A DNA stretch of 64,000 nucleotides from Patescibacteria group bacterium UBA3531 (GTDB lineage: Bacteria; Patescibacteriota; Minisyncoccia; Phycocordibacterales; UBA3531): assembly GCA_002376885.1 (NCBI GenBank), contig DFOW01000001.1, positions 143,741-207,740 on the forward strand, in the 5' to 3' direction. Below are positions 12,943 through 57,744 of this stretch, in pieces. How positions within the stretch are numbered: the first letter of the stretch is position 1; each line of letters begins with the position of its first letter. The position numbers and the translations under genes were made by a program. The notes under the pieces are model-generated. The model was not told the DNA's origin. It worked only from the letters and a program-made list of their open reading frames with translations, and searched no databases.

Positions 12943-12971
12943 AAAATACAAAATAATTTCTTTTTTGTCAA
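12943..12971 (-). promoter_or_regulatory. promoter aTTGACAaaaaag-17-TATTTT for cassette A
   Basis: -35 TTGACA at 12966-12971 (minus), -10 TATTTT at 12943-12948. Confidence 0.45.
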
Positions 12972-13013
12972 TAATACCCTTCCTTTTTCCTTCCGGCTCC
13001 CTATAATCAAGGT

Positions 13014-14450
13014 ATGGCGGATTTACAAGAATTATTTGAGAAAAAGCCCGATCTTAAAAAGAAAGAGAGGGATTTTATAGAAAAAGCATATCGTTTTGCA
13101 CAAGATGCTCACGGCGACCAAAAAAGATACTCGGGTGAGCTGTATTTTAATCATGTGGTTAGGTCAACTATTAATCTTCTTGATTTTAAAGTTGATAAAG
13201 AAACAATTGCGGCCGGACTTCTTCATGATGTCGTAGAAGATTGCGATGTTGAGCTTTCAGTTATTGAAAAAGAATTTGGCAAAGATGTTGCCTCGCTTGT
13301 ATCGGGAGTAAGTAAGCTAGGTACCGTAAAATACCAGGGACGTGAGCGCTATGTCGAGAATATGCGTCACTTATTTTTATCGATTGCAGATGATGTCCGT
13401 ATCCTTTTAATTAAACTTGCTGATCGACTTGATAATGTTCGGACCCTTGAGTTCGTACCAAAACACAAACAAGGGCGAATTGCTCTTGAAACACTTGAGG
13501 TATATGTCCCCCTCGCCAATCGACTTGGTATGGGTAAATTACGTTCTGAACTTGAAGAACCAGCCTTTAAATTTGCCTTTCCAGAAGACTACGCCCAGGT
13601 AAAAACACTTATCACCGAAAAAGGACGGGAGCGAGAAAAATATATTAAAAAAGTATTCAAATCGCTTTCAAAGCAATTAGTAAAAGCTGGTGTTAAAGAT
13701 GCTCACGTAGGATACCGAATTAAAGATACCTACAGTATTTACAAAAAACTCCTCAAAAAAGACATGGATGTTGCAAAAATTTATGACCTATATGCCCTCC
13801 GTGTCATTGTTCCTAAGGTTGAAGACTGCTACCAAGTGCTTGGAATTATTCATAAATTATGGAAGCCTCTCCCTGGCCGAATCAAAGATTACATTGCCAA
13901 CCCTAAAATTAACGGATATCAAAGCCTCCACACAACCGTGTTTACCGGAGATGGCGGTATTGCTGAAATCCAAGTACGGACTGAACAAATGCATACCGAT
14001 GCCGAGTACGGAGTTGCCGCTCATCTTCTTTACAAGGGGTCCCTTGGTAACAAAAAAGAGGAGCGCCTTAAGTGGCTCTCACACATCAGAGAAATTAATG
14101 AAGAAAATACTGGAAGTGAGGACTTTTTGAAAAACCTAAAACTGGATTTGTTTGAAAAACATGTCTTTTTATTTACTCCCCTTGGAGATGTTATTGAGCT
14201 TCCTGAAGGTTCGACAGCGCTTGATTTTGCCTATGCAATCCACTCAGACATCGGAAATCATGCCTCTGGCGTTAGGGTAAACGGAAAATTTGTGTCGCTT
14301 GATACAGAATTAAATAGCGGCGACATTGTTGAGGTCCAAACAAAACAAAATAACAAACCAACAAGAAAGTGGCTTGATTATGCAAAAACAAGTTTTGCAC
14401 AACGCTACATTAGAAACTTTTTAAAACAAGAGAATAAAAAGGAACCCTAG
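13014..14450 (+). CDS. rel: bifunctional (p)ppGpp synthetase/hydrolase, RelA/SpoT family (short)
   Basis: HD domain HGDQKRYSGELYFNHV..HDVVED, RelA_SpoT synthetase core YSIYKKL...LRVIV, TGS-like C-terminus. Confidence 0.85.
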   Translation: MADLQELFEKKPDLKKKERDFIEKAYRFAQDAHGDQKRYSGELYFNHVVRSTINLLDFKVDKETIAAGLLHDVVEDCDVELSVIEKEFGKDVASLVSGVSKLGTVKYQGRERYVENMRHLFLSIADDVRILLIKLADRLDNVRTLEFVPKHKQGRIALETLEVYVPLANRLGMGKLRSELEEPAFKFAFPEDYAQVKTLITEKGREREKYIKKVFKSLSKQLVKAGVKDAHVGYRIKDTYSIYKKLLKKDMDVAKIYDLYALRVIVPKVEDCYQVLGIIHKLWKPLPGRIKDYIANPKINGYQSLHTTVFTGDGGIAEIQVRTEQMHTDAEYGVAAHLLYKGSLGNKKEERLKWLSHIREINEENTGSEDFLKNLKLDLFEKHVFLFTPLGDVIELPEGSTALDFAYAIHSDIGNHASGVRVNGKFVSLDTELNSGDIVEVQTKQNNKPTRKWLDYAKTSFAQRYIRNFLKQENKKEP

Positions 14451-15379
14451 ACTGAGAAGTTACTGATTGAGTACAGGTCTTCCTCTTCTTTTTCCTTAGG
14501 AGGTTCGGGGCTTTCTCTCTCCTCTTTTATTTGATTTTGCTCTTCTTTTTCTTTCTCAATAACTTGCAAAATATTGTCGAGATCGCTCGGAGAGAAGAAT
14601 TCAATCATAATCTTCCCTCCATTTTCTTTTTTCTCAATCCTTACACGTGTACCCAGGCGTTCAGCAAGCTTGTCCTCAAGCTCACTTGTTTCTCTATCAA
14701 AAATTTTGGTTGGCTTTCGAACCTTGTCTTGAGCAATTTTTCGAGCAATTGCCTCTGCGTCACGCACCGTGAGTCGCCTATCAATAATATCTCTAAAAAG
14801 TGTTTGTTGAGCTTCGTCTCGCCCAGAAAGCATAAGAATAGGACGCGTATGACCCTCATTGATTTTTCCTTCCCGTACTGCTTGAAGCATTTCCCCAGGA
14901 AGCATTAAAAGGCGGATACTGTTTGAAACATATTCCCTACTCTTCCCCATCTTTTTTGCAATTTCGTTGTGAGTCAAACTAAATTCATCAGAAAGTTTGG
15001 CAAAGGCTTCTGCACGATCGATAGGATTAAGATCTTCTCGTTGAAGGTTCTCAATAATAGCAAGCTCTAGTTTTACTTTATCGTTATCTTCTTTTGCACG
15101 AATTACTGCTGGAACCTGCGCCAAACCTGCAAGACGTGATGCACGCAACCTGCGTTCTCCTGCAACCAATTCATACTCGACTGCAATTCCACCGTCATCT
15201 TTTGTGATTTCTTTTCTAGTAACAACAAGTGGTTGGAGAACTCCATATTGTCTGATTGAATCAGAAAGACTTTGGAGAGCCTCCTCGTTAAATTCTTTTC
15301 TGGGCTGATGTGGGTTTGGACTAATCTTGTCCGTATCGATAAAAAAAACTGCTTGGCTGTATGGCAATGACTCTGTCAT
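14447..15379 (-). CDS. parB: ParB/Spo0J-like partition protein
   Basis: ISPNPHQPRKEFNEEALQSLSDSIRQYGVLQPLVV ParB box; HTH LTHNEIAKKMGKSREYVSNSIRLL. Confidence 0.8.
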   Translation of the reverse strand: MTESLPYSQAVFFIDTDKISPNPHQPRKEFNEEALQSLSDSIRQYGVLQPLVVTRKEITKDDGGIAVEYELVAGERRLRASRLAGLAQVPAVIRAKEDNDKVKLELAIIENLQREDLNPIDRAEAFAKLSDEFSLTHNEIAKKMGKSREYVSNSIRLLMLPGEMLQAVREGKINEGHTRPILMLSGRDEAQQTLFRDIIDRRLTVRDAEAIARKIAQDKVRKPTKIFDRETSELEDKLAERLGTRVRIEKKENGGKIMIEFFSPSDLDNILQVIEKEKEEQNQIKEERESPEPPKEKEEEDLYSISNFSV

Positions 15380-15439
15380 GATTACTTATACTAAAGCAAA
15401 TTGATTTGCCGAGCAAATTTGAGTACACTGCTTTGGTAC

Positions 15440-15521
15440 GCTGGAGTGGCGGAATTGGTAGACGCGCACGACTCAAAATCGTGTCTCTTCGGAGGTGGGA
15501 GTTCGATTCTCCCCTCCAGCA
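15440..15521 (+). tRNA. tRNA-Leu (anticodon CAA), class II long variable arm
   Basis: GCTGGAG acceptor, D-loop GGAATTGGTAG, anticodon loop CTCAAAA, variable arm TCTCTTCGGAGGTG, T-arm GGGAGTTCGATTCTCCC. Confidence 0.85.
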
Positions 15522-15530
15522 CAATTTAAT

Positions 15531-15653
15531 CCAGGGAAGGAATTGGTAGGTGAAATGTCTGGGAGACATTTCACGACGACTATCTAAATCTTCTCTTCGG
15601 AGGTGGGAGTTCCCTGCCTTGTCGGCAGACAGGGATTCTCCCCCCGGGCACCA
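15531..15653 (+). pseudogene. degenerate tRNA-Leu-derived copy with hairpin insertions (tRNA-like element)
   Basis: Shares D-loop GGAATTGGTAG, variable arm and T-stem with the adjacent tRNA-Leu. Carries a perfect 11-bp hairpin with GGG loop (GTGAAATGTCT-GGG-AGACATTTCAC) and a 21-nt insertion in the T-loop. Anticodon arm destroyed, acceptor ends do not pair, ends GCACCA. Confidence 0.5.
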
Positions 15654-15679
15654 CAGCTCATTGACCAAAGGAACTTCTT

Positions 15680-16090
15680 TTGGTTAAATCAGTAATGGGT
15701 GGCAATGGGTGCCACAAAGCTCATGTACCACTTGTCTTTGGGGAGACAAACGTGAAACAAGGAAGGACGTCCTGTGAAGATCCGTTCGTCAACTTCAACG
15801 ATCACCTCTACAAGCGCCGGGGCATCGGCTCGCTCGAAGAGGGGAAGCTCGAACGGACGGAGGATCGACCCGCCTGGGTGCCGGAGGAAGCGACCGTCGC
15901 TGTACGGACGCGGCGCCTCCACGAACGGAGGGTTCTCGAGGTAACCACGTTCCGCCCGAACGGGAGCGGGTTCATCGAACAGAAGAACATCTTGGGAGGC
16001 GGCCGCGGTAGCATGCCGTCCCCCCAGATCGTGGAGATGCTCCTGAAGGAGGAGTACCCCTCGATCGACGTCCACCTCATCCAGGGCTAG
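15680..16090 (+). CDS. G+C-rich ORFan (cassette B); alternative GTG start at 15752
   Basis: Strong G/C bias at third codon positions in this frame; AGGAAGG just before internal GTG; overlapping minus-strand ORF 15689..16075 treated as GC shadow. Confidence 0.4.
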   Translation: MVKSVMGGNGCHKAHVPLVFGETNVKQGRTSCEDPFVNFNDHLYKRRGIGSLEEGKLERTEDRPAWVPEEATVAVRTRRLHERRVLEVTTFRPNGSGFIEQKNILGGGRGSMPSPQIVEMLLKEEYPSIDVHLIQG

Positions 16091-16111
16091 CGCTTCAGGC
16101 GCACAGCCTTC

Positions 16112-16156
16112 GCGGGGCGTGCGGCACGAAAGTGTCCACGCCCCGCCTTCTTTTTT
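16112..16156 (+). terminator. strong intrinsic terminator (10-bp GC stem + T-run) ending at the miaA ATG
   Basis: GCGGGGCGTG...CACGCCCCGC followed by cttctttttt then ATG of miaA at 16157. Confidence 0.6.
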
Positions 16157-17044
16157 ATGAACAAATCAAAGCTAATCATCATCGGGGGGCCAACAGCAAG
16201 TGGCAAAAGCGACTTAGCAGTTAGTGTGGCAAAAAAATATGGTGGAGAAGTTATTTCAGCAGATTCAAGGCAAGTATATAAGGGTCTTGATATTGGAACA
16301 GGAAAAATAACAAAAAAAGAAATGGGGGGCATTCCTCACCATCTTCTTGATGTAGCAAGCCCTAAAGAGCAATTTACTGCCCAGGACTTTCAAACAAAAG
16401 GAGGCCAAGCTATTAAAAAAATTTTTAAAAAAAATAAACTCCCCATTATTTGCGGCGGCACTGGATTTTATATAGATGCTCTCATATATAAAACTCAATT
16501 TCCAAGCATCCCCCCTAATAAAACCTTGCGCACAAAACTTGAAAAAAAGACACCTGAGGAGCTTTTTAAAATACTTAAGAACAAAGATCCCGAAAGAGCC
16601 ATGGTAATTGATCAGCACAATAAACGAAGATTAATCCGAGCCTTAGAGATTGTAGAAACTTTAGGAAAAGTTCCACAATTACACAAAACATTGCCCTATA
16701 AAATTTTATATATAGCGCTTGATCCAGTTGATCTTGATATAAAAATTCATGCGCGCCTAAAAGCAAGAATCAAACAAGGACTTATAAAAGAGGGGGAAAC
16801 ACTCCATAAAAAAGGTCTTTCGTATAAACGGATGAGAGAGCTGGGGCTTGAGTATAAATATTTAGCAGATTTGCTTCAAGAAAAAATCACTAAAGAAGAA
16901 TTTACTGAACAACTTGAAAAAGAGATCAGGCGTTATGCAAAACGGCAAATGACCTGGTTTAAAAAACAAAAAAATGTTCTTTGGTTTAAACCAAATGAAA
17001 CTAAAAAAATCTCCACAAAAGTAGAGAAATTTTTAGCTCTTTAG
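16157..17044 (+). CDS. miaA: tRNA dimethylallyltransferase
   Basis: N-terminal P-loop IIGGPTASGKS, ADSRQVYKGLDIGTGK, MiaA fold. Confidence 0.85.
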   Translation: MNKSKLIIIGGPTASGKSDLAVSVAKKYGGEVISADSRQVYKGLDIGTGKITKKEMGGIPHHLLDVASPKEQFTAQDFQTKGGQAIKKIFKKNKLPIICGGTGFYIDALIYKTQFPSIPPNKTLRTKLEKKTPEELFKILKNKDPERAMVIDQHNKRRLIRALEIVETLGKVPQLHKTLPYKILYIALDPVDLDIKIHARLKARIKQGLIKEGETLHKKGLSYKRMRELGLEYKYLADLLQEKITKEEFTEQLEKEIRRYAKRQMTWFKKQKNVLWFKPNETKKISTKVEKFLAL

Positions 17045-17117: not shown

Positions 17118-17183
17118 CTCTCCTGTATGTACAGTGAGGCCATTATAACAGAGAGAGTAGGAAAAGAAATTATTTCTTTACCT

Positions 17184-17210
17184 CGTTATGAATAGTGTGC
17201 TTCCTGCACC
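17184..17210. repeat. 27-bp direct repeat copy of the rpmG 3' end (cgttatgaatagtgtgcttcctgcacc)
   Basis: Matches 17326-17352 (cgttatgCatagtgtgcttcctgcacc) with one mismatch; separated by a GC-rich 105-bp spacer. Confidence 0.7.
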
Positions 17211-17311
17211 TATTACCACTCGGAAACCCACGGTTTTCCGACGGCTTCGCCTGCCTTTCTCCACGGGAAAACTAGAGTTTTCCCGACCCCTTTCCTGCAA
17301 ATGGTACAGGA

Positions 17312-17470
17312 TTACTTTTTTATTTCGTTATGCATAGTGTGCTTCCTGCACCATTTACAGTGCTTTTTGAGTTCAATTTTACGCTCAACAAGCTTCCGAT
17401 TCTTTCGGCTCCAGTAATTAGTGCGCTTACAATCTTTGCACGCAAGTTTTATAAGTTGATCTTGTGACAT
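17312..17470 (-). CDS. rpmG: 50S ribosomal protein L33
   Basis: 52-aa ORF below track cutoff: MSQDQLIKLACKDCKRTNYWSRKNRKLVERKIELKKHCKWCRKHTMHNEIKK, with CxxC...CxxC zinc ribbon and HxxE ending typical of L33. Confidence 0.75.
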   Translation of the reverse strand: MSQDQLIKLACKDCKRTNYWSRKNRKLVERKIELKKHCKWCRKHTMHNEIKK

Positions 17471-17532
17471 ATATTCAAAATTTGAGCTTCATAAAGATAC
17501 CCCATAGACCCTGAAAAATCAAGAGAAAAGGC

Positions 17533-17928
17533 TCACCATGCGGCGAGCCTTCCTTCCCCCGTGCCCTCGGGCTTGGGAGGAATGGCGCTTCTCTGCGGCC
17601 TTCGGAAGAACTGAGATTCCCCCATGGCACGCAACATCTTGACGAAGTCGTCCTCGACACAGAAACCGAGCCTCATGATGCACTCGGGACCATCGCAAAG
17701 GACAACGACAGCGTGACTTCCTTGGGCGCCGTCCTTGGGCTGGAAGACCGAGACCCTTCCTTGGAAGCGCCAAGCAACCAAGCAATCGATGAATCCGATC
17801 TTCGTCCCACAACGAGGACAGACGCGCTTGGGGCACCACACCCCAAACCCAGCACCGGCACTGATACTGTCAGCAACCGAAGACCCCCAGGAAGTGACCC
17901 AATAATCTTCGGGAACAATCTGCGTCAC
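17533..17928 (-). CDS. G+C-rich ORFan with 4-Cys zinc-ribbon-like motif (cassette C), GTG start
   Basis: CPKRVCPRCG...CDGPEC; GC3-rich; AAAGGGGGGG upstream of GTG; no family recognised. Confidence 0.4.
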   Translation of the reverse strand: MTQIVPEDYWVTSWGSSVADSISAGAGFGVWCPKRVCPRCGTKIGFIDCLVAWRFQGRVSVFQPKDGAQGSHAVVVLCDGPECIMRLGFCVEDDFVKMLRAMGESQFFRRPQRSAIPPKPEGTGEGRLAAW

Positions 17929-17961
17929 AGCCCCCCCTTTCTGAAAAACACTTTACCTTTT

Positions 17962-17990
17962 TTGACATAAAAAAGAAAGCATAGTATGGT
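17962..17990 (+). promoter_or_regulatory. promoter TTGACAtaaaaaag-17-TATGGT for cassette C plus-strand gene
   Basis: TTGACA 17962-17967, TATGGT 17985-17990. Confidence 0.45.
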
Positions 17991-18303
17991 TTACGTCTGT
18001 TCTTATTGGGGAAGGAGCCCTATAGACATGCACCATGTTGAAGTGCTAGACATCGATGGATTCCAGAACTTCCGCCTACATGAGGGAGACGAGATCATCC
18101 TCCCTGGCGTTCATCTCGAAGCCTCTCCCGCCCCGGGAGACAAGGTGAAGCTCGCCTTCCGTGACGTGGACTGCGTGACGAAGACGAGAGAAGCACTCAT
18201 CACCGGATCCATCGACCCCGGCGAGCCGAGCAACCCGAGGGAGCCCGTGGCTCCCAAGGACATCCGAGTTCGGTGGAACGATCCCATCGTGCGCTGGTCC
18301 TAA
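17986..18303 (+). CDS. G+C-rich ORFan (cassette C), 105 aa (alternative start 18028)
   Basis: GC3-rich frame, followed by strong terminator; no family recognised. Confidence 0.4.
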   Translation: MVYVCSYWGRSPIDMHHVEVLDIDGFQNFRLHEGDEIILPGVHLEASPAPGDKVKLAFRDVDCVTKTREALITGSIDPGEPSNPREPVAPKDIRVRWNDPIVRWS

Positions 18304-18316
18304 CGGACCAGACAAA

Positions 18317-18352
18317 GACCCCCGCGCATGCGCGGGGGTCTCGTCATTTTTA
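18317..18352 (+). terminator. intrinsic terminator GACCCCCGCGCATGCGCGGGGGTC + T-run
   Basis: 12-bp perfect GC stem followed by tcgtcatttttat. Confidence 0.7.
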
Positions 18353-18485
18353 TACAGTGTGCGCCGGGCAGGATTCGGTCACGAGTTACAAATTCGCTTT
18401 GCTCATAAGTACTCTCGACCCCAGCTCAAAAATAATCTCCCAGATTATTTTTTCCGCTCTTCGAATCCTAATTCCAGTCCAGAAA

Positions 18486-18516: not shown

Positions 18517-18526
18517 ATCTCTGTGT

Positions 18527-18609
18527 GCGCCGGGCAGGATTCGAACCTGCGTAGGTCTAAGACCGGCGGATTTACAGTCCGCTGCAATTGACCACTCTGC
18601 CACCGACGC
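18527..18609 (-). tRNA. tRNA-Tyr (anticodon GTA), long variable arm
   Basis: Acceptor GCGTCGG/CCGGCGC, anticodon stem GCGGA/TCCGC loop CTGTAAA, T-arm GCAGGTTCGAATCCTGC. Confidence 0.85.
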
Positions 18610-25883: not shown

Positions 25884-26630
25884 ATGCAGTATATAATATT
25901 ATCACCTTGTATGGGTATAAAATATTTAATAGACGAGCAATACTTTGAGAGCTGGTCCCCTGAAATGGCATACATTCTTGGATTTTTATATGCAGACGGA
26001 AGTTTGGAAAACGCTCCTAAACTGCGAGGAAAATATGTCAGAGCAACAAGCACCGATCTTGAAGTAATAAAACATATAAAAAAATCTTTACGTTCTGAAC
26101 ACAGAATAATCATAATACCCTCTTTTAGAAAGAGAAAAGAGAGATACTTGTTCAGAGCTGGAAGCCATGTTCTTTTTGATTCATTGACACAACATGGCCT
26201 TTTTCCAAATAAGTCTTTATCAATGAAGTTCCCCAAAAACATCCCTTCAAACTACCTAAGTCATTTTATAAGGGGATATTTTGATGGTGATGGATGTGTT
26301 CACTTGTCACAGGCCCGCAACCGAGAAGGTGCTCTACTGGTTAAAAGATTGGGCGTTGTCTTTACAAGCGGAAGTGAGTTATTTTTAAAAGAATTAGAAC
26401 GAGAAATCAGAAATGTCTTAAATATCAAAAAAAGAAATATCTATAAGAGTCGTCGTTCATTCCAGTTACGATATAGCACGACTGACAGTATAGAACTATT
26501 TACATTGATATATGCAAATACAAAAAATTTATTTTATTTAGGTAGAAAAAAAGAGATTTTCCTTCGATATTTTAAGTTGCGACCTCAGAGAATTAATACT
26601 AATATTGGTAAAATGTTAAAAAATATGTAA
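25884..26630 (+). CDS. free-standing LAGLIDADG homing endonuclease (two LAGLIDADG motifs)
   Basis: LGFLYADGS and IRGYFDGDGCV motifs about 100 aa apart; basic C-terminus. Confidence 0.75.
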   Translation: MQYIILSPCMGIKYLIDEQYFESWSPEMAYILGFLYADGSLENAPKLRGKYVRATSTDLEVIKHIKKSLRSEHRIIIIPSFRKRKERYLFRAGSHVLFDSLTQHGLFPNKSLSMKFPKNIPSNYLSHFIRGYFDGDGCVHLSQARNREGALLVKRLGVVFTSGSELFLKELEREIRNVLNIKKRNIYKSRRSFQLRYSTTDSIELFTLIYANTKNLFYLGRKKEIFLRYFKLRPQRINTNIGKMLKNM

Positions 26631-28163: not shown

Positions 28164-28192
28164 ACTTGACAAAAGCACGATTTTATGCTAAT
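28164..28192 (+). promoter_or_regulatory. promoter cTTGACAaaag-17-TAATTT for cassette D
   Basis: TTGACA 28164-28169; AT-rich -10; AAAGAGG RBS before ATG at 28297. Confidence 0.4.
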
Positions 28193-28296
28193 TTTGATGC
28201 AGGTTAGATAGCACCGCGGTGGTGCACCAGACTGTACGTCGCAGTGCGACAGTTCATCGTCAACTCACTTTCTAGCGAAGAAAAGAGGTAATATTC

Positions 28297-29475
28297 ATGT
28301 CAATCATAACCCTGACGTTGATCGTCTTCGTCACGCTCCTTGTTCTGAGTGTGCCGTTGTTCGTCCTCGTTGCGTGGCTCCTGGCCTACCTGGATATCTT
28401 TTTTGGATTCCTCCAGGAGAATACGGGCTTCGCCAAGATCGTTGGAGACAACCAACTTCAAAGCATGCAAATCGCTTCGAAGAGTCAGCACCTCAAAAGG
28501 AAGGTGGTCCAACACCCTGAGGCGGGCGCAATCGAGACGTGGGTTCTGGAACAAGGAGCAGATCCCAACCCTGCCTTCGGCCTTATTGGTTGGATGGAGC
28601 GCAAGCTTGGTGTCTACTGGATTGGTGTTTGGCCGTTCCAAAGGCGCTACCGGTACGAGATGTTCCGAACCGTCTTCGATCGGAGTGCTGACGCAGACGA
28701 GAACACGATCCTCCGGAAGAATGACCAGAGCAAGTTCTTCTACGTTCAGCCGGTGGAGTACGCCTTCTCTCTCCTCGGAGCAGAGACAGGCAGTGCCTTC
28801 GCTGGCGACACAGAAGATACGGACACTTCGTCTCGGGGTGGCAACATCCCGGTGAACGTGAAGTTCTCCGTGTTCCTCTTGATCACAAGACCCGAGATTG
28901 CCCTCTTCAAGAACCCTGTATGGTTCGAGCGAGCAAGCTCGATCCTTCTGTCCGCAGCGAAGAACTACGTCGGCACTCGTGCGTATGAGGCGCTCCGTGG
29001 CGAAAGCCGATCGGACACCGCAGACGTCGAGACCGATGATGCCTTCGCGGGCTACATGCGGGATCTGAACGAAGCGATTCCGGGAACCGGTCACGGCTTC
29101 GAATCCGAGATCGGTGCCAAGATCGTCGGAGCGGCCATCAGAGCCGTCGACATCACGGCGGAGGGCGAAGAGGCCCGAAGCGCAACGCTGCTCCTCTACG
29201 GAGAAGAGCAGCGCGCCAAGGGAATCCGAGCCGTCGCTGATGCGCGTCGCTACGAGCTCGAACAGGAGCTCGATGCAGTCGATGGATCCCCCAACGGGGG
29301 GCACGTCCGTCGGATGCGCGCGATCGAGCGTGCAGGTGAGCGTGGTAACACAATCATCTTCACGAGCGGCGGCGACGAAAAGGAGGATCGTGTCGCAGCG
29401 AACCTTCTGGCTGGCCGCAAGGGTGAAGACCCCTCAAGCGAAGGCACCGATGACTCCACCGAGAAGGAGGAGTAG
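28297..29475 (+). CDS. G+C-rich SPFH/band-7-like membrane protein (cassette D)
   Basis: N-terminal TM, beta-rich core with ...ASSILLSAAKNYVGTRAYEAL..., EIGAKIVGAAIRAVDI, then A/E/R-rich coiled-coil AEGEEARSA...RAKGIRAVADARRYE as in HflK/C-flotillin. Confidence 0.5.
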   Translation: MSIITLTLIVFVTLLVLSVPLFVLVAWLLAYLDIFFGFLQENTGFAKIVGDNQLQSMQIASKSQHLKRKVVQHPEAGAIETWVLEQGADPNPAFGLIGWMERKLGVYWIGVWPFQRRYRYEMFRTVFDRSADADENTILRKNDQSKFFYVQPVEYAFSLLGAETGSAFAGDTEDTDTSSRGGNIPVNVKFSVFLLITRPEIALFKNPVWFERASSILLSAAKNYVGTRAYEALRGESRSDTADVETDDAFAGYMRDLNEAIPGTGHGFESEIGAKIVGAAIRAVDITAEGEEARSATLLLYGEEQRAKGIRAVADARRYELEQELDAVDGSPNGGHVRRMRAIERAGERGNTIIFTSGGDEKEDRVAANLLAGRKGEDPSSEGTDDSTEKEE

Positions 29476-30252
29476 ATGAAGATGCCTGACTCGATAAGGG
29501 GGCTTGGGTGGAAGCGGTTCTCCGCAACTGCCCTTACCTCGTTCATCCTCGTCATTGTCTCGTTCATGATCGTGAACGCAGGCGAGGGCGAGGCAGAGAA
29601 GGTCTTCAAGACTCTCTCTGTGATTGCGACCGGGATTGGAGCACTCCTCGTTCTCCTGCTTCTTCTCGTGATCGTGTCGTCTCTTGCTCGTAGGCGTCGG
29701 TCTCTCAAAAAAGAGACTCCCGTCGTCGACAAGCCGACCAAACCAGGAAGATGGCAGAAGTTCAGGGCCACTCCCTTCTTCTGGACACTCTTCAAGGTCT
29801 CCGCCTTCGTAGTGGCAGTAGTCATTGCAATAAGCGGATTCCCTCTGTTGCGTGACGCCATGAACATCCCCGACGTGGGGCCCAGGAATGGAGATCTCAA
29901 GTTCTCCAAGTGGACGCTCTCCAGTACACCACTGTCGTACAACCTGAATCGAACGACACGTGGTACGGTCAAGATCTGGAAGAAAGAGCGTCGCTTTGAG
30001 CTTCCGTTCTTCTTGAACATGAAGCTCATGGGCGAGGATGGAGTTCTCGTGGGGCAAATCACCTCGAGTGACTTTGCCATGGGCGAGACCTTCCCCGTCA
30101 CCTGGGAGATGACCTGGCGAGACCATATGACCGGAGACGGAGCCCTCGAGTGTCACTACAACAAACACCACAGCGTGATTGCTTGTAACGGCACCATCTG
30201 CGGCGAAGATTCCGAAGGTCGGAGGTGTCGTCGAGTGAACTTTAGCGGCTAG
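29476..30252 (+). CDS. G+C-rich membrane protein (3 TM + Cys-containing soluble C-domain), start abuts upstream stop; possible NfeD-like partner
   Basis: TAG-ATG junction at 29473-29478; three hydrophobic helices; no family recognised. Confidence 0.4.
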   Translation: MKMPDSIRGLGWKRFSATALTSFILVIVSFMIVNAGEGEAEKVFKTLSVIATGIGALLVLLLLLVIVSSLARRRRSLKKETPVVDKPTKPGRWQKFRATPFFWTLFKVSAFVVAVVIAISGFPLLRDAMNIPDVGPRNGDLKFSKWTLSSTPLSYNLNRTTRGTVKIWKKERRFELPFFLNMKLMGEDGVLVGQITSSDFAMGETFPVTWEMTWRDHMTGDGALECHYNKHHSVIACNGTICGEDSEGRRCRRVNFSG

Positions 30253-30267
30253 AAAGGAGAAGACATC

Positions 30268-30339
30268 CTCACATCTAAATATATAGATGTGAGAAAATGG
30301 GCCCTGTCCGCCATATGCGGATAGGGCCTGTTTCTTTGT
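30268..30339. terminator. tandem hairpins between convergent cassette D and pilin array
   Basis: CTCACATCTA-aatatat-AGATGTGAG and GGGCCCTGTCCGC-cata-TGCGGATAGGGCC + tgtttcttt. Confidence 0.55.
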
Positions 30340-37682: not shown

Positions 37683-37801
37683 TTCGCGTCTTTATTAACC
37701 CTTCTGAACCCCCCTAGTATAGCAGAAATCCGCCTAAAAACAAAGCTTTTTCTGGTTTTTAGCCTAAAAATAATTTCAAGCTATTGAATCATTAAACGTA
37801 C

Positions 37802-37830
37802 TTGACAAATATATATAAATATGATATTAT
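37802..37830 (+). promoter_or_regulatory. promoter cTTGACAaat-17-TATTAT for cassette E
   Basis: TTGACA 37802-37807, TATTAT 37825-37830. Confidence 0.5.
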
Positions 37831-37889
37831 AAGAATAGAAACATAGGGAAAGGCATTGTGCCCCTACTGCTCACCACAAGGAGAATACC

Positions 37890-38249
37890 GTGTATACCGC
37901 AGCATCTCTTTTTCTGATCATCTTCTGCGTGGCATGCTCCCCTGTGGAGGAGGCAAGCCCCAGAGAGAAAGTGAATGAAATCCGGCAGGGTTTCGTGAAT
38001 GACATCGGAGATGAGGGCCTAGAGAAGGCTCTTGAGAACCTCTCGCAGGAATGCGAGAAGCTCGAAGGCTACGGCTTCAGTGTCAAGACCCTCAACAGGA
38101 CTCGAGGCGTCTACAAGATCAAGATCACTGGGCCCAACGTGGCAACCCAGGTGATCTTTCAGACCTCTGAGTCAGTCGACGAGCAATCCTCTGCAGAGCG
38201 CCTGGACGCTCCTACACTCAAGGGGTTTGAGGCTCCCATTCTCCAGTAG
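37890..38249 (+). CDS. G+C-rich putative lipoprotein ORFan (cassette E)
   Basis: Signal LFLIIFCVACSP with lipobox-like Cys; GC3-rich; GAGAATACC-GTG/ATG context; terminator follows. Confidence 0.4.
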   Translation: MYTAASLFLIIFCVACSPVEEASPREKVNEIRQGFVNDIGDEGLEKALENLSQECEKLEGYGFSVKTLNRTRGVYKIKITGPNVATQVIFQTSESVDEQSSAERLDAPTLKGFEAPILQ

Positions 38250-38288
38250 TACCAAGGCTTCGCCTGACAGCCTAAAAGGACTCGGGCA

Positions 38289-38322
38289 ACACACCATCTT
38301 GGAAGCAAGGTGGTGTTTTTGT
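38289..38322 (+). terminator. intrinsic terminator ACACCATCTTGG-aagc-AAGGTGGTGT + TTTTTG
   Basis: 11-bp stem (1 mismatch) plus T-run. Confidence 0.6.
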
Positions 38323-38505
38323 ATTTGTACAATTAATTGTACAAATAATTCTGTATTGTTACGCAGCATGTTACGTAACACCTTACGTAAATAAAAACTT
38401 CCCAAGAAACCACATTTGGAAATGGTACCCTCCTGTCGGGCACGTTTGGAACTTTGGATTGGAGTAGAATAAGGTGAGATTTGATGGAGTTCGGATTTGT
38501 ATAGC

Positions 38506-38778
38506 CTAGAGTGTATTAAAAAGATATACGATTATAGCAAAGCCAACCACAACGATTAGGGCGTAAAATGATTTTTTATTTAAGAACGTGTCGCCATCAT
38601 CTATAAATTTGCCGACAAAGTAAAAGAGGAGAAGGGTTATTATAGGGAAAATTTGTTGTTCAGCTTGTAGAATAAAAATATTATCTGTTGGTGGATAATC
38701 AGTAAGGATGCGTGTGTACAGCAAATAAAGCACATACAGAATTCCCCAAATAATTATTCCTAGATATTGCTTTTTCAT
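38506..38778 (-). CDS. small hypothetical membrane protein (2-3 TM)
   Basis: 90 aa, hydrophobic; no family recognised. Confidence 0.35.
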   Translation of the reverse strand: MKKQYLGIIIWGILYVLYLLYTRILTDYPPTDNIFILQAEQQIFPIITLLLFYFVGKFIDDGDTFLNKKSFYALIVVVGFAIIVYLFNTL

Positions 38779-38849
38779 AATAAAAGTATATCAAAAGTTC
38801 TATATCCTTTTGTTGGGATATCGAAATTTAATGTGAATAAATAAGGCTC

Positions 38850-39075
38850 AAAAATTTGCCCCCAGAAACACGGTTTGAAATTCTACCATGGGAATATTTC
38901 TTATCCTAGCACGACTTTTGAAAGGACTCTCGGAAATAAAGTTCCCCAGGGAAGTATGTTTGAGAGCGTCCGCAGGCGATACTGCTTGGTTTTGCCGTAG
39001 GCAAAAGTATCGCCGAGGATAGAGCGAGTCTCCGCTGGAGAGACGAGCGTCTGCCCAAATGTGGTTTCTTAAAGC
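38850..39075. ncRNA. candidate structured RNA upstream of rpsA promoter (identity and strand unresolved)
   Basis: Moderate-GC segment with nested long-range pairings (GGGAATATTTC/GAAATAAAGTTCCC; GGCGATACT/AGTATCGCC with inner TTTTGCC-GTAG-GGCAAAA); RNase P and tmRNA motifs not found. Confidence 0.2.
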
Positions 39076-39080: not shown

Positions 39081-39109
39081 TTGCCAAAAAACGAGTTAAA
39101 CACTATACT
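39081..39109 (+). promoter_or_regulatory. promoter TTGCCA-17-TATACT for rpsA (about 125-nt leader with perfect 10-bp hairpin ACACAAGAAC/GTTCTTGTGT)
   Basis: TTGCCA 39081-39086, TATACT 39104-39109. Confidence 0.55.
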
Positions 39110-47262: not shown

Positions 47263-47269
47263 GCATAAG

Positions 47270-47312
47270 AAAACCACCCAAGAGGACTGGAACCTTTTTT
47301 GGGTGGCCTTAA
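47270..47312. terminator. bidirectional terminator CCACCCAA...TTGGGTGG with T-runs on both strands
   Basis: After ftsZ stop and after minus-strand cassette F gene. Confidence 0.6.
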
Positions 47313-47902
47313 GTGTGTCGAGTGATGTAGATCACGCGACGACACCCAATTACGAACTCTTTTTGGAGGAGGTCTAGGAGTTCTGGATAGTTTCTCCTTT
47401 CTCTAAGCCATGCGTACGAGAAGGCGTCACACACTCTTTCACATTCCCTGTATTCCTCACCGAACATTCCCGACAGAACATCCTGCAGATCTTCGCTCAC
47501 GCCCCTTACGAGTGAAAAGACGTGGGCTAGTTCGTGGCCGACACCAACAATCCATTCCTCGAGCGTCTCGTGCGCAGCGAGCACAATGTGAAGAGGAGGA
47601 GTGCCCAGAGCAATACTTGCCCCAGGTCTCCACGAAACTTCCCAGGGTGTTTCTCCTGGAATGTCATCAAATCGTGTCACCGTAATTGACTCTATATGAA
47701 ATGCCTCGAGTTGTTCTGTCACAGTTCCCGGAGGAATCATGGCAAGCATCTCTTCAACGAATCGATTATGATTCCCCACAATTCCTCCTTTCGAAGAACA
47801 ATTTATCCTAGTATACACTATGCGGAACATCATACGAAAAAGTTGGAACCGCCTTGAGGAGTATGTATTTGAGTCTTTTGAACTTCTCCAAAACAAAAAC
47901 AA
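47309..47902 (-). CDS. G+C-rich HExxH-motif protein, putative ImmA/IrrE-like zinc metallopeptidase (cassette F); alternative start 47749
   Basis: IVGVGHELAHVFSLV motif; GC3-rich; N-terminal 51 residues may be non-coding. Confidence 0.4.
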   Translation of the reverse strand: MFLFWRSSKDSNTYSSRRFQLFRMMFRIVYTRINCSSKGGIVGNHNRFVEEMLAMIPPGTVTEQLEAFHIESITVTRFDDIPGETPWEVSWRPGASIALGTPPLHIVLAAHETLEEWIVGVGHELAHVFSLVRGVSEDLQDVLSGMFGEEYRECERVCDAFSYAWLRERRNYPELLDLLQKEFVIGCRRVIYITRHT

Positions 47903-48037
47903 CCCTGATTTCTCAAGGAAATTGAGTGGGTAGTGGTCACATGGTGTTAGTAGAACATATACACAAAAGAGAACACCCCGCCGAGAGCCTGCGAGGGTTC
48001 TCGGCGGGGTGATGAAGTATCGCTTTTGGGTCAGTAG

Positions 48038-48373
48038 CTAGCTAGACCAGGTCTCCATCCCGACCAGCACAGAAATGATGGTCAGGACAATGAAGATGGG
48101 AATTCCGACTGCTCGCCCAAACCTTGCGTAAAGGTAGAGCGTGATGGAGTTGCGAATGACACCCTCGGGGTCGTGCTTGCGAAAGCAGAAGTTGGCGAAC
48201 ACCGACAGGGGGCACCACAGAAAGATGACTTGACCAATTACGGTCAACAGGATTGCCAACCTTGTGATGTGATTCGGCAACCACAGCTCTCCGAAGATGA
48301 GAACTGCAACAATGAAGACTGCGTGGAATGCCTCAGTTGCGATACCGAGGCAGAGCCATCCTTTTTTGGACAT
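48038..48373 (-). CDS. G+C-rich small membrane protein (cassette F)
   Basis: Track ORF 48038..48541 trimmed because its 5' end runs through tRNA-Ser; start at MSKKGW; 3 TM. Confidence 0.4.
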   Translation of the reverse strand: MSKKGWLCLGIATEAFHAVFIVAVLIFGELWLPNHITRLAILLTVIGQVIFLWCPLSVFANFCFRKHDPEGVIRNSITLYLYARFGRAVGIPIFIVLTIISVLVGMETWSS

Positions 48374-48468
48374 TACTTTACCTCGGTTGGGGGAACTACA
48401 AGACGAAGGATTTCGTCCTGTCTTAACCACAAATAGCCTACCACAAGATAGGCTATTTGTCAATACTA

Positions 48469-48786: not shown

Positions 48787-48827
48787 GTTGACATCTTTTA
48801 TTGCTGTGCGCTACCGTTACATTACAA

Positions 48828-53510: not shown

Positions 53511-53622
53511 TTAGGGTCGGGCTCGAACCGACGGTCTCCCTCGCTTCGTTCGGATGAAAAGTAATCCCATTACTTTTCATCCCTTCGCCATCCGGCGAAG
53601 GATCATTTAAACTAACCCTGCC
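53511..53622 (-). pseudogene. degenerate tRNA-Phe-derived copy with hairpin insertions (tRNA-like element)
   Basis: T-arm GTCGGTTCGAGCCCGAC identical to adjacent tRNA-Phe; anticodon arm replaced by TTCGCC-GGAT-GGCGAA tetraloop hairpin; inserted perfect 14-bp hairpin GGATGAAAAGTAAT-GGG-ATTACTTTTCATCC; acceptor does not pair. Confidence 0.45.
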
Positions 53623-54112: not shown

Positions 54113-54124
54113 AATTAATATCAA

Positions 54125-54640: not shown

Positions 54641-54647
54641 ACAGAGC

Positions 54648-55316: not shown

Positions 55317-55486
55317 AACGACAAGACACCCTTTTTAGCTTATAATGGCAACACTATTAGTATAACCGGATACCCTATGCTCTTCCAAAAAAAGCATAAA
55401 AAGAAGATTCGTATTATATGGAGCATCCTTGCTGTGCTTATCACCCTTAGCATGCTCCTCTTCTATAGCCCCCTCCATTTGGCCTT

Positions 55487-57274
55487 TTAGCCACGCATTA
55501 CCTTCAAAAATACATCTTGTGGAATAGAAACTTTTCCTCCTTCTTTCATCTTTTTCTTTCCCTTTTTTTGCTTTTCTCTGAGTTTCATCTTCCGAGTAAT
55601 GTCCCCACCGTAAAGCTTTGCTGTAACATCTTTACGGAGCGCCTTTAGGGTTTTTGAGGCAATAATGCGCCCTTTTGCTTGTGCTTGAATTTTAATAACA
55701 AATTGCTGGCGCGGAAGAACATCATGGAGTTTTTCTACCACATCTCGCGCTTCTTCTTCTGCTCGACGTTCAGCAATAATCCGAGAAAATGCAGGAACTA
55801 TTTCCTCTGCAATCAAAACATCAAGTCGTGTTACCTGCGCTTCTCGCATATCACCCATCTCATATGAAAGAGAGGCATACCCACTGGTTGCGCTTTTTAT
55901 TTCATCAAAAAAGTTTCGCATAAGCTCGCGCAAAGGCATTTCAAGATCAAGTGCCATGCGATTGTCTCCGAATGAATTAGTGTTACCAACAATGGCTTCG
56001 TGTTCATAAAGGAGCGTCATAACATTTCCCAAATAATCACCAGGGACAATAAGAGTAACCTTAATCCATGGTTCTAAAACTTTTTCGTAACTTCCATGAT
56101 CAGGAAACTTTACGGGAGAATAAATAATTTCTTCCTTCCCACCCTTAGAAAATACTTTATAGGTAATAGTAGGGCTTGTAATAATAAGATTCAAATTAAA
56201 CTCTCGTTTTAATCGTTCGGTAATAATTTCAAGATGAAGCATTCCCAAAAAACCACAGCGGAATCCTCGCCCAAGCGACACTGACGCCTCCTCTTCAAAC
56301 GAAAGAGATGAATCGGTTAAAAGAAGTTTGCCAAGCGCTTGACGCAATACATCAAAATCATCTTGGCTTTCAGGGTAGAGCGATGCCCACACTACTGGCT
56401 TTGGTTTTTCAAATCCTGTCACGGGAGCGCTTTGTGATTTAAAAAGTGTTACGGTGTCACCCACTTGTGTTACTCCCGGGCGTTTAATACCTGTTACAAT
56501 GTATCCAATTTCACCCTCTTTCAAAGAATCTTTTTTTGTTCGAAGAGGAGAAAACACTCCAACCTCTTGAGCAATAAACCGTTCTTTTGCCCCAACAAAC
56601 AATAGTTCGTCTCCTTTTTTAACCTCTCCTCCATAGACACGAGTGTAGACAATAACTCCTTGATGGTTTGAATATTCAAAATCAAAAATAAGTGACTGAA
56701 GAGAGTTTGCCTTAGTTTTTTTAGGAGAAGGAACCTTATCGACAATACGATCAAGAAGCGCCTCTACTCCTTCTCCTGTTTTTGCAGAAACACATAAAAT
56801 TTCATCGGGAGAACAACCCACCACATTTACTACTTGCTGTTTTACCTCTTCTGTTTGAGCTCCAGCAAGATCAATCTTATTGAGGACTGGAATAATGGGA
56901 AGATTAAGCTCTTTTGCCATATCAAGAACCGTAAGCGTCTGTGCCTGAACCCCTTGTGTGGCATCAACAAGTAAAATGGTTCCTTCGATAGATTTAAGGG
57001 CTCGAGATACTTCGTATGAAAAGTCTATGTGCCCGGGTGTATCGATAAGATTCAAAACATAGTCTGTTCCTTCTTTTTGATACCCCATTCGAACAGGCTG
57101 CATTTTAATGGTAATCCCACGTTCTCGTTCGAGCTCCATTTGATCGAGAAGCTGATCCTTCATTTCACGTTCTGAGATTGTTTTAGTCACCTCTAACATG
57201 CGGTCGGCAAGAGTCGACTTTCCATGATCAATATGCGCAATGATTGAAAAATTTCGTATGGTATTGGTATCCAT
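55487..57274 (-). CDS. lepA: elongation factor 4
   Basis: IRNFSIIAHIDHGKSTLADR G-domain, LepA C-terminal domain. Confidence 0.9.
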   Translation of the reverse strand: MDTNTIRNFSIIAHIDHGKSTLADRMLEVTKTISEREMKDQLLDQMELERERGITIKMQPVRMGYQKEGTDYVLNLIDTPGHIDFSYEVSRALKSIEGTILLVDATQGVQAQTLTVLDMAKELNLPIIPVLNKIDLAGAQTEEVKQQVVNVVGCSPDEILCVSAKTGEGVEALLDRIVDKVPSPKKTKANSLQSLIFDFEYSNHQGVIVYTRVYGGEVKKGDELLFVGAKERFIAQEVGVFSPLRTKKDSLKEGEIGYIVTGIKRPGVTQVGDTVTLFKSQSAPVTGFEKPKPVVWASLYPESQDDFDVLRQALGKLLLTDSSLSFEEEASVSLGRGFRCGFLGMLHLEIITERLKREFNLNLIITSPTITYKVFSKGGKEEIIYSPVKFPDHGSYEKVLEPWIKVTLIVPGDYLGNVMTLLYEHEAIVGNTNSFGDNRMALDLEMPLRELMRNFFDEIKSATSGYASLSYEMGDMREAQVTRLDVLIAEEIVPAFSRIIAERRAEEEARDVVEKLHDVLPRQQFVIKIQAQAKGRIIASKTLKALRKDVTAKLYGGDITRKMKLREKQKKGKKKMKEGGKVSIPQDVFLKVMRG

Positions 57275-57300
57275 AGCACTACTATACTAAAGTATTTCTC

Positions 57301-57347
57301 TTAAAAAGAAAGCCGCCTCGAGTCCACAATGGGTACCCGGGCGGCGG
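57301..57347 (-). terminator. GC hairpin + U-run ending the cassette G transcript just upstream of lepA start
   Basis: Minus RNA ...CUCCGCCGCCCGGGUACCCAUUGUGGACUCGAGGCGGCUUUCUUUUU. Confidence 0.45.
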
Positions 57348-57453
57348 AGTGGACGGCACCTGGGTGCGTCCATGGTTTTCTAGTGCGCAAGGCGCACCTT
57401 GGTGGAAGGTCCCAGCTCAAGGGGTGAGCCTCGAGTCTGGGCGGAAGGCGGAT

Positions 57454-57648
57454 CTAGCCGAAGAGGGGCGCACCGAGCGAGACGACCCCGCCGGGCAGGA
57501 TCACGTGACCCCGACCATCCGAACCGAGCGGCGGACCGCTGAGCTCGGAGAACGGGATCTCGCTCTCGCGACGGAGCCGGCGAACCGAGCCACGCGTCCG
57601 GGTGCTCTCCTTGGTGCGTACCGTGCCTTCGCCTTCCTGTTTCTTCAT
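57454..57648 (-). CDS. very G+C-rich small basic ORF (cassette G), 64 aa; coding status uncertain
   Basis: AGGAAGGGAAGGAAT-cccg-ATG context; track ORF begins at TTG inside the -35 box so trimmed to internal ATG. Confidence 0.3.
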   Translation of the reverse strand: MKKQEGEGTVRTKESTRTRGSVRRLRRESEIPFSELSGPPLGSDGRGHVILPGGVVSLGAPLFG

Positions 57649-57715
57649 CGGGATTCCTTCCCTTCCTGAAGTTCTCTTTCGAGCGCGGCCCCCAGCCACG
57701 CTACGTCCACTATCC

Positions 57716-57744
57716 AAACTACTATAATAAAAGTCTTTTGTCAA
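57716..57744 (-). promoter_or_regulatory. promoter cTTGACAaaag-17-TAGTTT for cassette G
   Basis: -35 TTGACA at 57739-57744 (minus); near-identical to cassette D promoter over 20 nt. Confidence 0.4.

Follow-up and report, generated by a model that had tools for sequence, protein, structure and literature searches.

Genomic Context of the G+C-Rich Cassettes

This study concerns a promoter box, cTTGACAaaag, that recurs in front of small G+C-rich gene cassettes in a stretch of 64,000 nucleotides (nt) from Patescibacteria group bacterium UBA3531 (contig DFOW01000001.1, positions 143,741 to 207,740), here called the window and numbered from its first letter. The window has a G+C content of 42% and an ordinary bacterial housekeeping gene content, comprising topA, a relA/spoT homologue, parB, miaA, clpB, infB, gyrA, rpsA, hisS, ftsA, ftsZ, tsaD, lepA, murJ and rnpB as well as a class II ribonucleotide reductase gene and 13 tRNA genes. 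Its T4SS-pilin genes, which stand in rows, and its best matches, which are to genomes of Paceibacterota, Parcubacteria and Zambryskibacteria, place it within the candidate phyla radiation (CPR), or Patescibacteria; the host is a marine bacterium of the Paceibacteria/Parcubacteria type with a reduced, symbiont-type genome.

Seven sharp islands with a G+C content of 0.52–0.70 (200-nt sliding window) were found at 12501–12950, 15701–16250, 17501–18450, 28351–30250, 37851–38300, 47401–48350 and 57251–57800. They are the cassettes A to G of the original prediction, dispersed over 45 kb, and were resolved into nine transcription units (A, B, C', C, D, E, F1, F2 and G) with ten open reading frames (ORFs). 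For comparison, 37 ordinary protein units were used for promoters and 57 ordinary genes for starts; the whole sample amounts to 82.5 kb of one genome (the window and 18.5 kb of the same contig) and about 90 kb of relatives. Contigs of related species carry L numbers (L004, L170, etc.), L176 being a flank of the window's own contig. An assembly chimera was rejected as the source of the islands, as the identical sequence is present in JGI (3300020447), NCBI (GCA_002708165.1 PAMJ01000009.1, a Tara Oceans metagenome-assembled genome) and Logan assemblies, and it is also countered by the orthologous cassettes of other species described below.

A Consensus −35 Box Heads Most Cassettes

The box had been predicted in front of cassettes D and G, and both strings are present there as quoted: the exact 11-mer CTTGACAAAAG occurs exactly twice in the window, counting both strands, at 28165 (+) and 57745 (−), each time heading a G+C-rich cassette (28165–28190 on the plus strand reads cttgacaaaagcacgattttatgcta, and 57745 to 57721 on the minus strand reads cttgacaaaagacttttattata). 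The pattern TTGACA-N15-19-TANNNT has seven matches in the window, and six of these lie at the edge of a G+C-rich island and point inward, namely those of A, C, D, E, F1 and G (Table 1). The spacer is 17 nt long in all six perfect cassette sites and likewise in cassette B, which has TTGACC, and TTGACAAA is found in five of the six perfect cassette promoters. Both strands of the window hold 19 TTGACA hexamers, as compared to 46.6 ± 7 expected from dinucleotide shuffles, and 6 of the 19 fall within the 110 nt that precede one of the nine cassette unit starts, in about 1 kb in total (binomial P ~5e-9). A perfect TTGACA promoter thus heads 6/9 cassette units vs 2/37 ordinary protein units (Fisher p = 2e-4). 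When promoters were scored with an E. coli-derived position-weight matrix, the −35 boxes of the cassettes were maximal at 8.4 bits against a median of 2.3 for ordinary first genes (p = 0.003), while the −10 boxes scored 1.6–5.3 (median 3.7) against an ordinary median of 5.8, which is a trend only (p = 0.06).

In the window, TTGACA and TTGTCA alike are about two-fold under-represented; a second-order Markov model predicts about 40 where 19 are observed, and the rank is about 60 among the 4096 hexamers. Depletion of TTGACA as a promoter-specific signal was not upheld, TTGTCA being equally depleted and a maximal-order Markov model expecting 24.9.

The match of about 20 nt that had been reported between D and G is present if a gap is allowed, but the gap shifts the 'ttttat' blocks 3 nt out of the −35/−10 register. 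Without a gap and with the constrained promoter positions excluded, D and G are identical at 20/46 positions (0.43), as compared to 13–19/46 (0.28–0.41) for other cassette pairs; a longer homologous box common to D and G was rejected, since the resemblance beyond TTGACAA is marginal. The box consists of the canonical −35 hexamer of sigma-70 promoters and adjoining A-rich bases of the spacer, and the motif itself is already known.

Besides the promoter, the cassettes share a leader of about 30–100 nt, a strong Shine-Dalgarno (SD) sequence (AAGGAG, AAGGAGG, GAGGT or GGGGAG), one or two ORFs and a G+C-rich hairpin followed by a T-run. The strongest terminator-like hairpins of the window are mostly located at cassette ends (B −30.3, D −27.1, C −25.2, C' −22.9 and G −20.8 kcal/mol). 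In the cassette ORFs the G+C content is about 0.6 at first codon positions (GC1), about 0.4–0.55 at second (GC2) and 0.66–0.82 at third positions (GC3), whereas GC3 of ordinary genes is 0.27–0.43; judged by composition, this pattern is that of coding sequence whose codon usage is alien to the remaining genes. The raised G+C content spans the whole cassette transcript including its untranslated parts, the AT-rich promoter excepted. Translational selection for GC-ending codons was excluded as its cause because groEL, groES and rpsA have GC3 values of 0.30–0.31.

Table 1. Promoters and transcription units of the cassettes, and promoters of other genes, in window positions (aa, amino acids).
Feature	Positions	Strand	Description
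Cassette A promoter	12943..12971	−	TTGACA-17-TATTTT
Cassette A unit	12575..12936	−	Leader, SD AAGGAG, 88-aa ORF 12903 to 12637 (GC3 0.74), hairpin and T-run terminator ~12609–12575
Cassette B promoter	15661..15689	+	TTGACC-17-TTAAAT, one −35 mismatch
Cassette B unit	15697..16156	+	Leader hairpins, GTG start 15752, 112-aa ORF to 16090 (GC3 0.82), terminator 16112–16156
Cassette C' unit	17514..17950	−	131-aa CPRCG-containing strict ORFan 17928 to 17533, SD-like AAGGGGGGG, terminator 17514–17560, without TTGACA
Cassette C promoter	17962..17990	+	TTGACA-17-TATGGT
Cassette C unit	17997..18352	+	91-aa ORF 18028–18303 (GC3 0.73), terminator 18311–18351
Cassette D promoter	28165..28194	+	C-TTGACA (28166–28171), 17-nt spacer ending TGC (extended −10), TAATTT (28189–28194)
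Cassette D unit	28201..30337	+	~95-nt leader with hairpins, D1 28297–29475, D2 29476–30252, bidirectional terminator 30294–30337
Cassette E promoter	37802..37830	+	TTGACA-17(TGA)-TATTAT, top-scoring promoter of the window
Cassette E unit	37837..38325	+	SD AAGGAG, 119-aa ORF 37890–38249 resembling a lipoprotein precursor, terminator 38291–38320
Cassette F1 promoter	48435..48463	−	TTGACA-17(TGG)-TAGGCT; overlaps hairpin just downstream of tRNA-Ser
Cassette F1 unit	47965..48428	−	Leader hairpin, SD GAGGT, 111-aa membrane-protein ORF 48373 to 48038, terminator ~48010–47965
Cassette F2 unit	47267..47810	−	−10 TATACT, SD AAGGAGG, 156-aa ORF 47779 to 47309, terminator 47267–47307, without TTGACA
Cassette G promoter	57716..57745	−	C-TTGACA (57744–57739), 17-nt spacer, TAGTTT (57721–57716); directly after murJ stop codon
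Cassette G unit	57303..57709	−	5' hairpin, SD, 64-aa basic ORF 57648 to 57454 (GC3 0.80), terminator 57303–57345
tRNA-Val promoter	48788..48817	+	TTGACA-18-TACCGT ending 10 nt before the gene (seventh window match); counter-example
rpsA promoter (comparison)	39081..39109	+	TTGCCA-17-TATACT; housekeeping type
rnpB promoter (comparison)	60052..60080	−	TTGCAA-17-TATACT

Promoters and Start Signals of Ordinary Genes

Housekeeping promoters had been described as distinct from the box, which was confirmed: those of rpsA and rnpB belong to the type TTGCCA/TTGCAA-17-TATACT, and the sequence upstream of dnaX reads TTGCCA-16-TAGTAT (4559). Promoters of the housekeeping type join an imperfect −35 box to a strong TATAAT/TATACT −10 box, those of the cassettes a perfect −35 box to a weak −10 box. 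More generally, the stable RNA genes together with rpsA follow TTGnnA-17/18-TATACT, and the rpsA promoter is kept in the relatives L004 and L008 as TTGCTA/TTGCAA...cacTATACT.

The two gene sets also differ in their start signals. An SD-like match of at least 4 nt was detected for 13/57 ordinary genes (at least 5 nt for four), as compared to an SD in 10/10 cassette ORFs (Fisher p = 5e-6), and genes internal to operons also lack an SD in this genome. By contrast, a TAnnnT ending 4–10 nt before the start codon was present in 22/57 ordinary genes, with a sharp peak at 6–9 nt, and in 0/10 cassette genes; examples are relA (13014), parB (15379), the Na/Ca exchanger gene (27150), lepA (57274) and ftsZ (45958). 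In L004 and L008 ordinary genes are likewise without SD and have start-proximal −10 boxes. Such boxes would imply leaderless mRNAs and, with them, a largely leaderless transcriptome in which a promoter stands before many individual genes. At lepA, L170 (3080–3222) and L171 (9610–9738) contain about 100–130 nt, absent from the window, between the conserved −10 (…tagtatag…) and the called start, which may mean that the start differs, that a leader is present or that an element has been inserted.

TTGACA Promoters Outside the Cassettes

The motif is enriched at the cassettes, not private to them. The 18.5 kb of flanking sequence of the same contig, which served as an out-of-sample region, contain no G+C-rich island and two perfect TTGACA-17 promoters, both in front of low-G+C ordinary genes with good −10 boxes and 8-nt leaders, namely secG (TAGAAT) and a gene for a csoR-like repressor (TATTAT). 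The latter promoter, which belongs to a csoR-like metal repressor operon, lies at L176 7985–8013, about 1.3 kb left of the window, and the palindrome ATACCCTATGGGGGTAT in its spacer is likely to be an autoregulatory operator. The groES promoter reads TTGACC-17-TATACT. In about 90 kb from the relatives, perfect TTGACA-16..18-TAnnnT was confined to the D and G orthologues, apart from a single occurrence upstream of rpoB. Whether the motif stands equally often before ordinary low-G+C genes, a question raised with the original prediction, therefore has a divided answer: it does occur before tRNA-Val, secG, the csoR-like gene and rpoB of a relative, but with 6/9 vs 2/37 units the occurrence is not equal. 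A general CPR phenomenon was rejected, as RelA and ParB led to about 100 loci of distant Patescibacteria in which TTGACA promoters were not followed by G+C-rich sequence. Orthologues of cassettes A to C were not obtained from these loci, which are too distant, and no close relative covering the region was found.

Cassettes D and G Are Conserved in Related Species

D1 is a protein of 392 aa with an N-terminal transmembrane helix and D2 a predicted membrane protein of 258 aa. Among 5.8 billion proteins D1 has four homologues, three of which come from other species, all with the D1-D2 gene pair. L004/L006 and L008 share the window neighbourhood (Na/Ca exchanger, D1 D2, T4SS pilins), while in the most distant relative, L009, a contig of 4 kb, the pair is present with other flanking genes. 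The identity to L004 is 82% for GyrA, 58% for the Na/Ca exchanger, 52% for D1 and 25% for D2. From this synteny, and from the divergence of D1 being close to that of its neighbour, it follows that D is old and vertically kept, with D2 evolving fast. The D1 alignment has 63 invariant columns, and GC3 of the D1 orthologues is 0.46–0.54 as compared to 0.25–0.36 for neighbouring genes, the excess being small in L009 (0.49 vs 0.40).

All D orthologues (three other species) carry TTGACA upstream. The L004 promoter reads CTTGACAAAGCACCTATTTTATGCTTAACTT, although its D1 is only 52% identical; the alignment with the window starts at the C before TTGACA, further upstream the sequence is unalignable, and the spacer is identical at 12/17 positions. 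The flanks of the −35 box are not conserved among the D orthologues (CTTGACAAAGC, ATTGACATTTA and CTTGACATTTT). The leader, an SD-like purine-rich stretch and the terminator are kept in the relatives. In the D leader a hairpin of the form GCACC-loop-GGUGC is kept between the window (28215–28255) and L004 (9925–9965), with the loop GCGGU vs AUGGC, and a second hairpin follows. In L005 (8800–9882) and L007 (66–1148) an rve-type transposase gene takes the place of the Na/Ca exchanger gene upstream of an identical D1 orthologue; homology to L004 sets in again one base before CTTGACA, and the rearrangement breakpoint thus abuts the −35 box.

For cassette G, LepA homologues at 81%, 79% and 66% identity led to the contigs L170, L171/L172 and L173/L174, respectively. 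The murJ-lepA gap of all these relatives contains TTGACA-17-TAnnnT right after murJ, followed by a 5' hairpin, a purine-rich SD-like stretch, an ORF and a terminator. Across the four species, the promoter columns without any variation are precisely those of TTGACAA together with the first T, the A and the last T of the −10 box. The spacer and the flanks vary, including the C and the AAAG that enclose the hexamer in the 11-mer (GTTGACAATAG, ATTGACAATAT and CTTGACAAAGG). The length of the ORF is kept (64, 64, 64 and 68 aa) while the identity of the peptide to the window copy is 43%, 28% and 18%, and GC3 of the orthologues is 0.52–0.77 vs 0.25–0.36 for the neighbours. The 5' hairpin of the window, AGCGUGGC-UGGGG-GCCGCGCU, lies within 57649–57709 on the minus strand and recurs in L170 (2700–2730) and L173 (9656–9674) with a UGGGG or UGGAG loop; it is weakly predicted in L171, and its stem shows compensatory changes (GG/CC in the window vs AA/UU in L170). 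A second conserved hairpin, CCAGAC...GCTGG, is located in the 3' untranslated part of G, where about 150 nt are G+C-rich and noncoding. The structure could stabilise the mRNA or serve as the site of a regulator. As D and G each occupy the same position in three other species, they are old and maintained, and not recent imports.

Cassette E and a small neighbouring ORF are absent from L004 and L008, where the distance between lactB3 and rpsA is 120–160 nt. The corresponding spacer of the window (37746–39070) has gained about 1.3 kb relative to both, consisting of cassette E, an AT-rich membrane ORF of 90 aa (38506–38778, minus strand) and a G+C-rich, hairpin-rich stretch (38930–39060) just before the promoter of rpsA. 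In the window the leader of this gene has 125 nt, whereas it is short in the relatives.

Protein Searches and Neighbouring Features

Searches for function, family and origin of the cassette proteins gave no significant match in Pfam, PHROGs, NCBIfam or PADLOC, and no homologues were found in G+C-rich organisms. The C' protein has no homologue beyond a near-identical copy from its own contig, whereas the B protein weakly matched repeat-unit proteins, one of them annotated with PD40 beta-propeller repeats. The F2 ORF contains a HELAH (HExxH) motif and has a GC3 of only 0.47. The AlphaFold model of D1 had a predicted local distance difference test (pLDDT) score of 50.7, which is too poor for a fold search, and no PDB profile matched. 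No Rfam family was detected in any cassette, even at E <= 0.5, a search for a plasmid origin of D gave no match, and D1, C', B and F2 had no relatives among the viral contigs of IMG/VR.

In cassette C the −10 box covers the mechanically called ATG 17986, which is therefore wrong, and the real start is ATG 18028, behind GGAAGGAG. The terminator T-run of cassette B directly abuts the ATG of miaA, and no recognisable miaA promoter is present in the 66-nt gap. Between tRNA-Leu and the B promoter lies a degenerate tRNA-Leu-like copy (15523–15650) with inserted hairpins and an encoded ACCA, in which 15594–15613 repeats 15486–15505. A pseudo-tRNA-Tyr (18357–18440) is located beside cassette C, its 21-nt 3' end (18357–18377) being identical to 18523–18543, and a tRNA-Phe-like remnant (53513–53556) lies 150 nt from tRNA-Phe. 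In the region 17118–17311 the last 48 nt of rpmG are duplicated (17169–17216 vs 17311–17358, 85% identity), and the spacer between rpmG and tRNA-Trp (17220–17300) is G+C-rich and apparently structured, with a weak, sub-threshold RsmY-like Rfam match only. A free-standing gene resembling LAGLIDADG homing endonuclease genes (25884–26630, 33% G+C) is located directly upstream of a cluster of four tRNA genes; other small AT-rich ORFs occupy its position in L004 and L006.

Discussion

In our view the box, TTGACA with mostly a further AA, is probably the −35 element that drives a set of strong promoters belonging to the housekeeping sigma-70/SigA type. These promoters would each combine a 17-nt spacer with a degenerate, T-rich TAnnnT −10 box and head an autonomous unit, in which a leader of 30–100 nt, often with a 5' hairpin, and a strong SD would precede one or two small lineage-specific ORFs with a GC3 of about 0.7–0.8 and a strong intrinsic terminator. 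Ordinary genes, by comparison, would have little or no SD, an imperfect −35 box and a good −10 box ending 6–9 nt before the start, and would be transcribed into leaderless mRNAs. The motif would then track the cassettes because these form the leadered, −35-dependent expression class of the genome, and not because it is their private signal. What the data show directly are the places of the motif, the statistics of the two classes and the conservation at orthologous loci; the use of the promoters, their reading by the housekeeping sigma factor, the leaderless state of ordinary mRNAs and a high expression of the cassettes are what we infer from these patterns.

Several points weigh against this explanation. 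The sample is small, and both perfect TTGACA promoters in its out-of-sample part belong to ordinary genes. The units C' and F2 are without TTGACA and B has TTGACC, while the F1 hexamer, overlapping a hairpin downstream of tRNA-Ser, could be partly fortuitous. Furthermore, promoters, leaders and leaderless starts were all called from sequence with the E. coli-derived matrix, and the combination of a weak −10 box with a perfect −35 box might also fit a promoter for a different factor of the sigma-70 family.

In this reduced CPR genome, promoter type, leader, SD use, terminator use and codon composition switch together between two gene sets, and related species keep the switch at orthologous loci. 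If this holds, sequence alone would suffice to single out functionally distinct small proteins of uncultivated bacteria, which are probably expressed strongly or in a different manner. Moreover, a single start-site model per genome would be wrong here, several cassette starts having been mis-called (for C, 17986 instead of 18028), and it would have to be asked what keeps GC3 of the cassettes at 0.5–0.8 vs 0.3 elsewhere in the genome. The full-text literature searched contains no description of leaderless initiation or of G+C-rich cassettes in Parcubacteria or CPR; the joint change of promoter type, initiation mode, terminators and composition, conserved at orthologous loci, is a novel variation on themes already known, namely moron-like autonomous units and genomes that mix leaderless and SD initiation.

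A further step, which we advance only tentatively, is that this CPR clade has two expression 'dialects', an AT-rich, SD-less and leaderless core on the one hand and G+C-rich, −35-driven, SD-led and terminator-bounded units for a minority of small lineage-specific proteins, conserved at family-level divergence, on the other, and that the GC3 excess and the initiation mode of the latter reflect selection and not foreign origin. One possibility would then be a switchable regime of translation or transcription, for example with leadered SD mRNAs favoured in a certain physiological or host-attached state; alternatively, selection at the RNA level might shield the transcripts from spurious internal leaderless initiation.

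The cassettes may instead be recent horizontal imports from G+C-rich, SD-using donors, either moron-like or as tRNA-targeted islets, which came with the native promoter, SD and terminator of the donor, so that the motif would simply mark foreign DNA. Their GC3, far above the value of about 0.30 of host genes including the highly expressed groEL and rpsA, would fit such an origin, as would the ORFan nature of their proteins, the absence of cassette E with its neighbouring small ORF from two relatives, the degenerate tRNA-Leu and tRNA-Tyr copies adjoining cassettes B and C, and the possession of a promoter and a terminator of their own, as in the definition of morons (PMC3594210). However, D and G are found in the same positions in three other species each, at distances reflected by 82% GyrA identity for the closest D relative and 81–66% LepA identity for the G relatives, and the divergence of D1 is similar to that of the adjoining gene. 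GC3 is still raised in these relatives (with the small excess in L009) though synonymous sites must be saturated; in addition, the searches in G+C-rich organisms and viral contigs remained without homologues and the cassettes are without integrase or phage genes. A recent, moron-like import would thus fit E and possibly A to C but does not fit D and G, and as an account of the whole set we regard it as unlikely.

According to the original prediction, the box might be a dedicated regulatory signal of the cassette family. Such a signal might be recognised by an alternative sigma factor, or bound by a regulator that controls the cassettes jointly as a regulon. What stood of this suggestion is the strong enrichment at the cassettes, the make-up of the promoters, with a perfect −35 box systematically joined to a weak T-rich −10 box unlike in housekeeping promoters, and the conservation of the −35 box in orthologues; the bases common to five of the six perfect promoters and the partly conserved D spacer also point in this direction. 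What did not stand is its dedicated or novel character: the hexamers at a distance of 17 nt are nothing but the sigma-70 consensus, the C and AAAG on either side are not maintained in the D and G orthologues, the cassette promoters are outside the core no more alike (0.28–0.43 identity) than AT-rich sequence, the box is absent at C' and F2, and ordinary genes (secG, the csoR-like gene, tRNA-Val and rpoB) share the promoter type. Since the motif equals the consensus, its extra bases are unconserved and other genes use it, a dedicated sigma factor or regulator is quite improbable.

In AT-rich genomes, G+C-rich intergenic islands are often structured RNAs, and the hypothesis that part of the cassettes, in particular G, encode structured noncoding RNAs that owe their G+C content to RNA structure, with the promoter driving an RNA gene instead of a protein gene, may appeal to this, to the conserved G hairpin with its compensatory changes, to the noncoding 3' part of G and to its fast-evolving peptide; but it is very improbable in view of the order GC3 > GC1 > GC2 that most cassette ORFs show when read in the proposed frame, the raised GC3 of the G orthologues (though L170 and L171 depart from that order), the properly spaced SD at all ORFs, the kept length of the G ORF, the clear conservation of D1 as a protein and the lack of Rfam matches in the cassettes. 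It is therefore disfavoured, though less so for G with its conserved untranslated structures.

Comparison With Known Systems

Phage morons are autonomous promoter-gene-terminator units of deviant G+C content inserted between prophage genes (PMC3594210). Like morons, the cassettes each bring a promoter and a terminator for their one or two genes, differ clearly from their flanks in G+C content and lie between unrelated genes, and the presence of at least cassette E varies among relatives. Unlike morons, they are chromosomal and located between housekeeping genes (topA/relA, murJ/lepA, tRNA/miaA and the gyrA side), had no significant PHROG match and no IMG/VR relatives in the searches described above, and in the case of D and G keep their place in several species with a G+C excess that is maintained and does not decay. 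A resemblance to tRNA-associated islets lies in the fact that B, C and F1 adjoin tRNA genes and that partial tRNA copies are found nearby (15594–15613 and 18357–18377). However, no integrase is present, the cassette ORFs being without Pfam or NCBIfam match, the tRNA fragments lie between tRNA and cassette instead of bracketing the cassettes, and A, D, E and G are not beside a tRNA 3' end. Integron cassettes, which are promoterless ORFs arrayed beside intI and ending in an attC site each, differ as well: the units described here are dispersed, every one is equipped with a promoter, and they end in an intrinsic terminator (hairpin and T-run) that is not of the attC type; intI was not searched for.

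Genomes that mix leaderless and SD-led initiation include those of Mycobacterium, Deinococcus and Streptomyces and make up 'group C' of GeneMarkS-2. As in these, a −10 box stands at a fixed short distance from many first-gene starts and a second gene set has a leader and an SD. In the known mixed genomes, SD-led genes are common, also inside operons, and of ordinary composition, whereas here internal operon genes are without SD and the SD-led set consists of G+C-rich ORFan cassettes with consensus −35 boxes and terminators.

The closest counterpart of the promoter itself is the canonical group 1 sigma-70 (RpoD/SigA) promoter, consisting of TTGACA, 17 bp, TATAAT and an optional TGn. The hexamers and the 17-nt spacing of the cassette promoters match it, TGn precedes the −10 box in D, E and F1, and the columns conserved in orthologues are exactly the sigma contact positions. 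The cassette promoters depart from it in their unusually weak, T-rich −10 boxes (TAATTT, TAGTTT, TATTTT and TAGGCT), and the full −35/−10 form is a minority here, being concentrated on one gene class.

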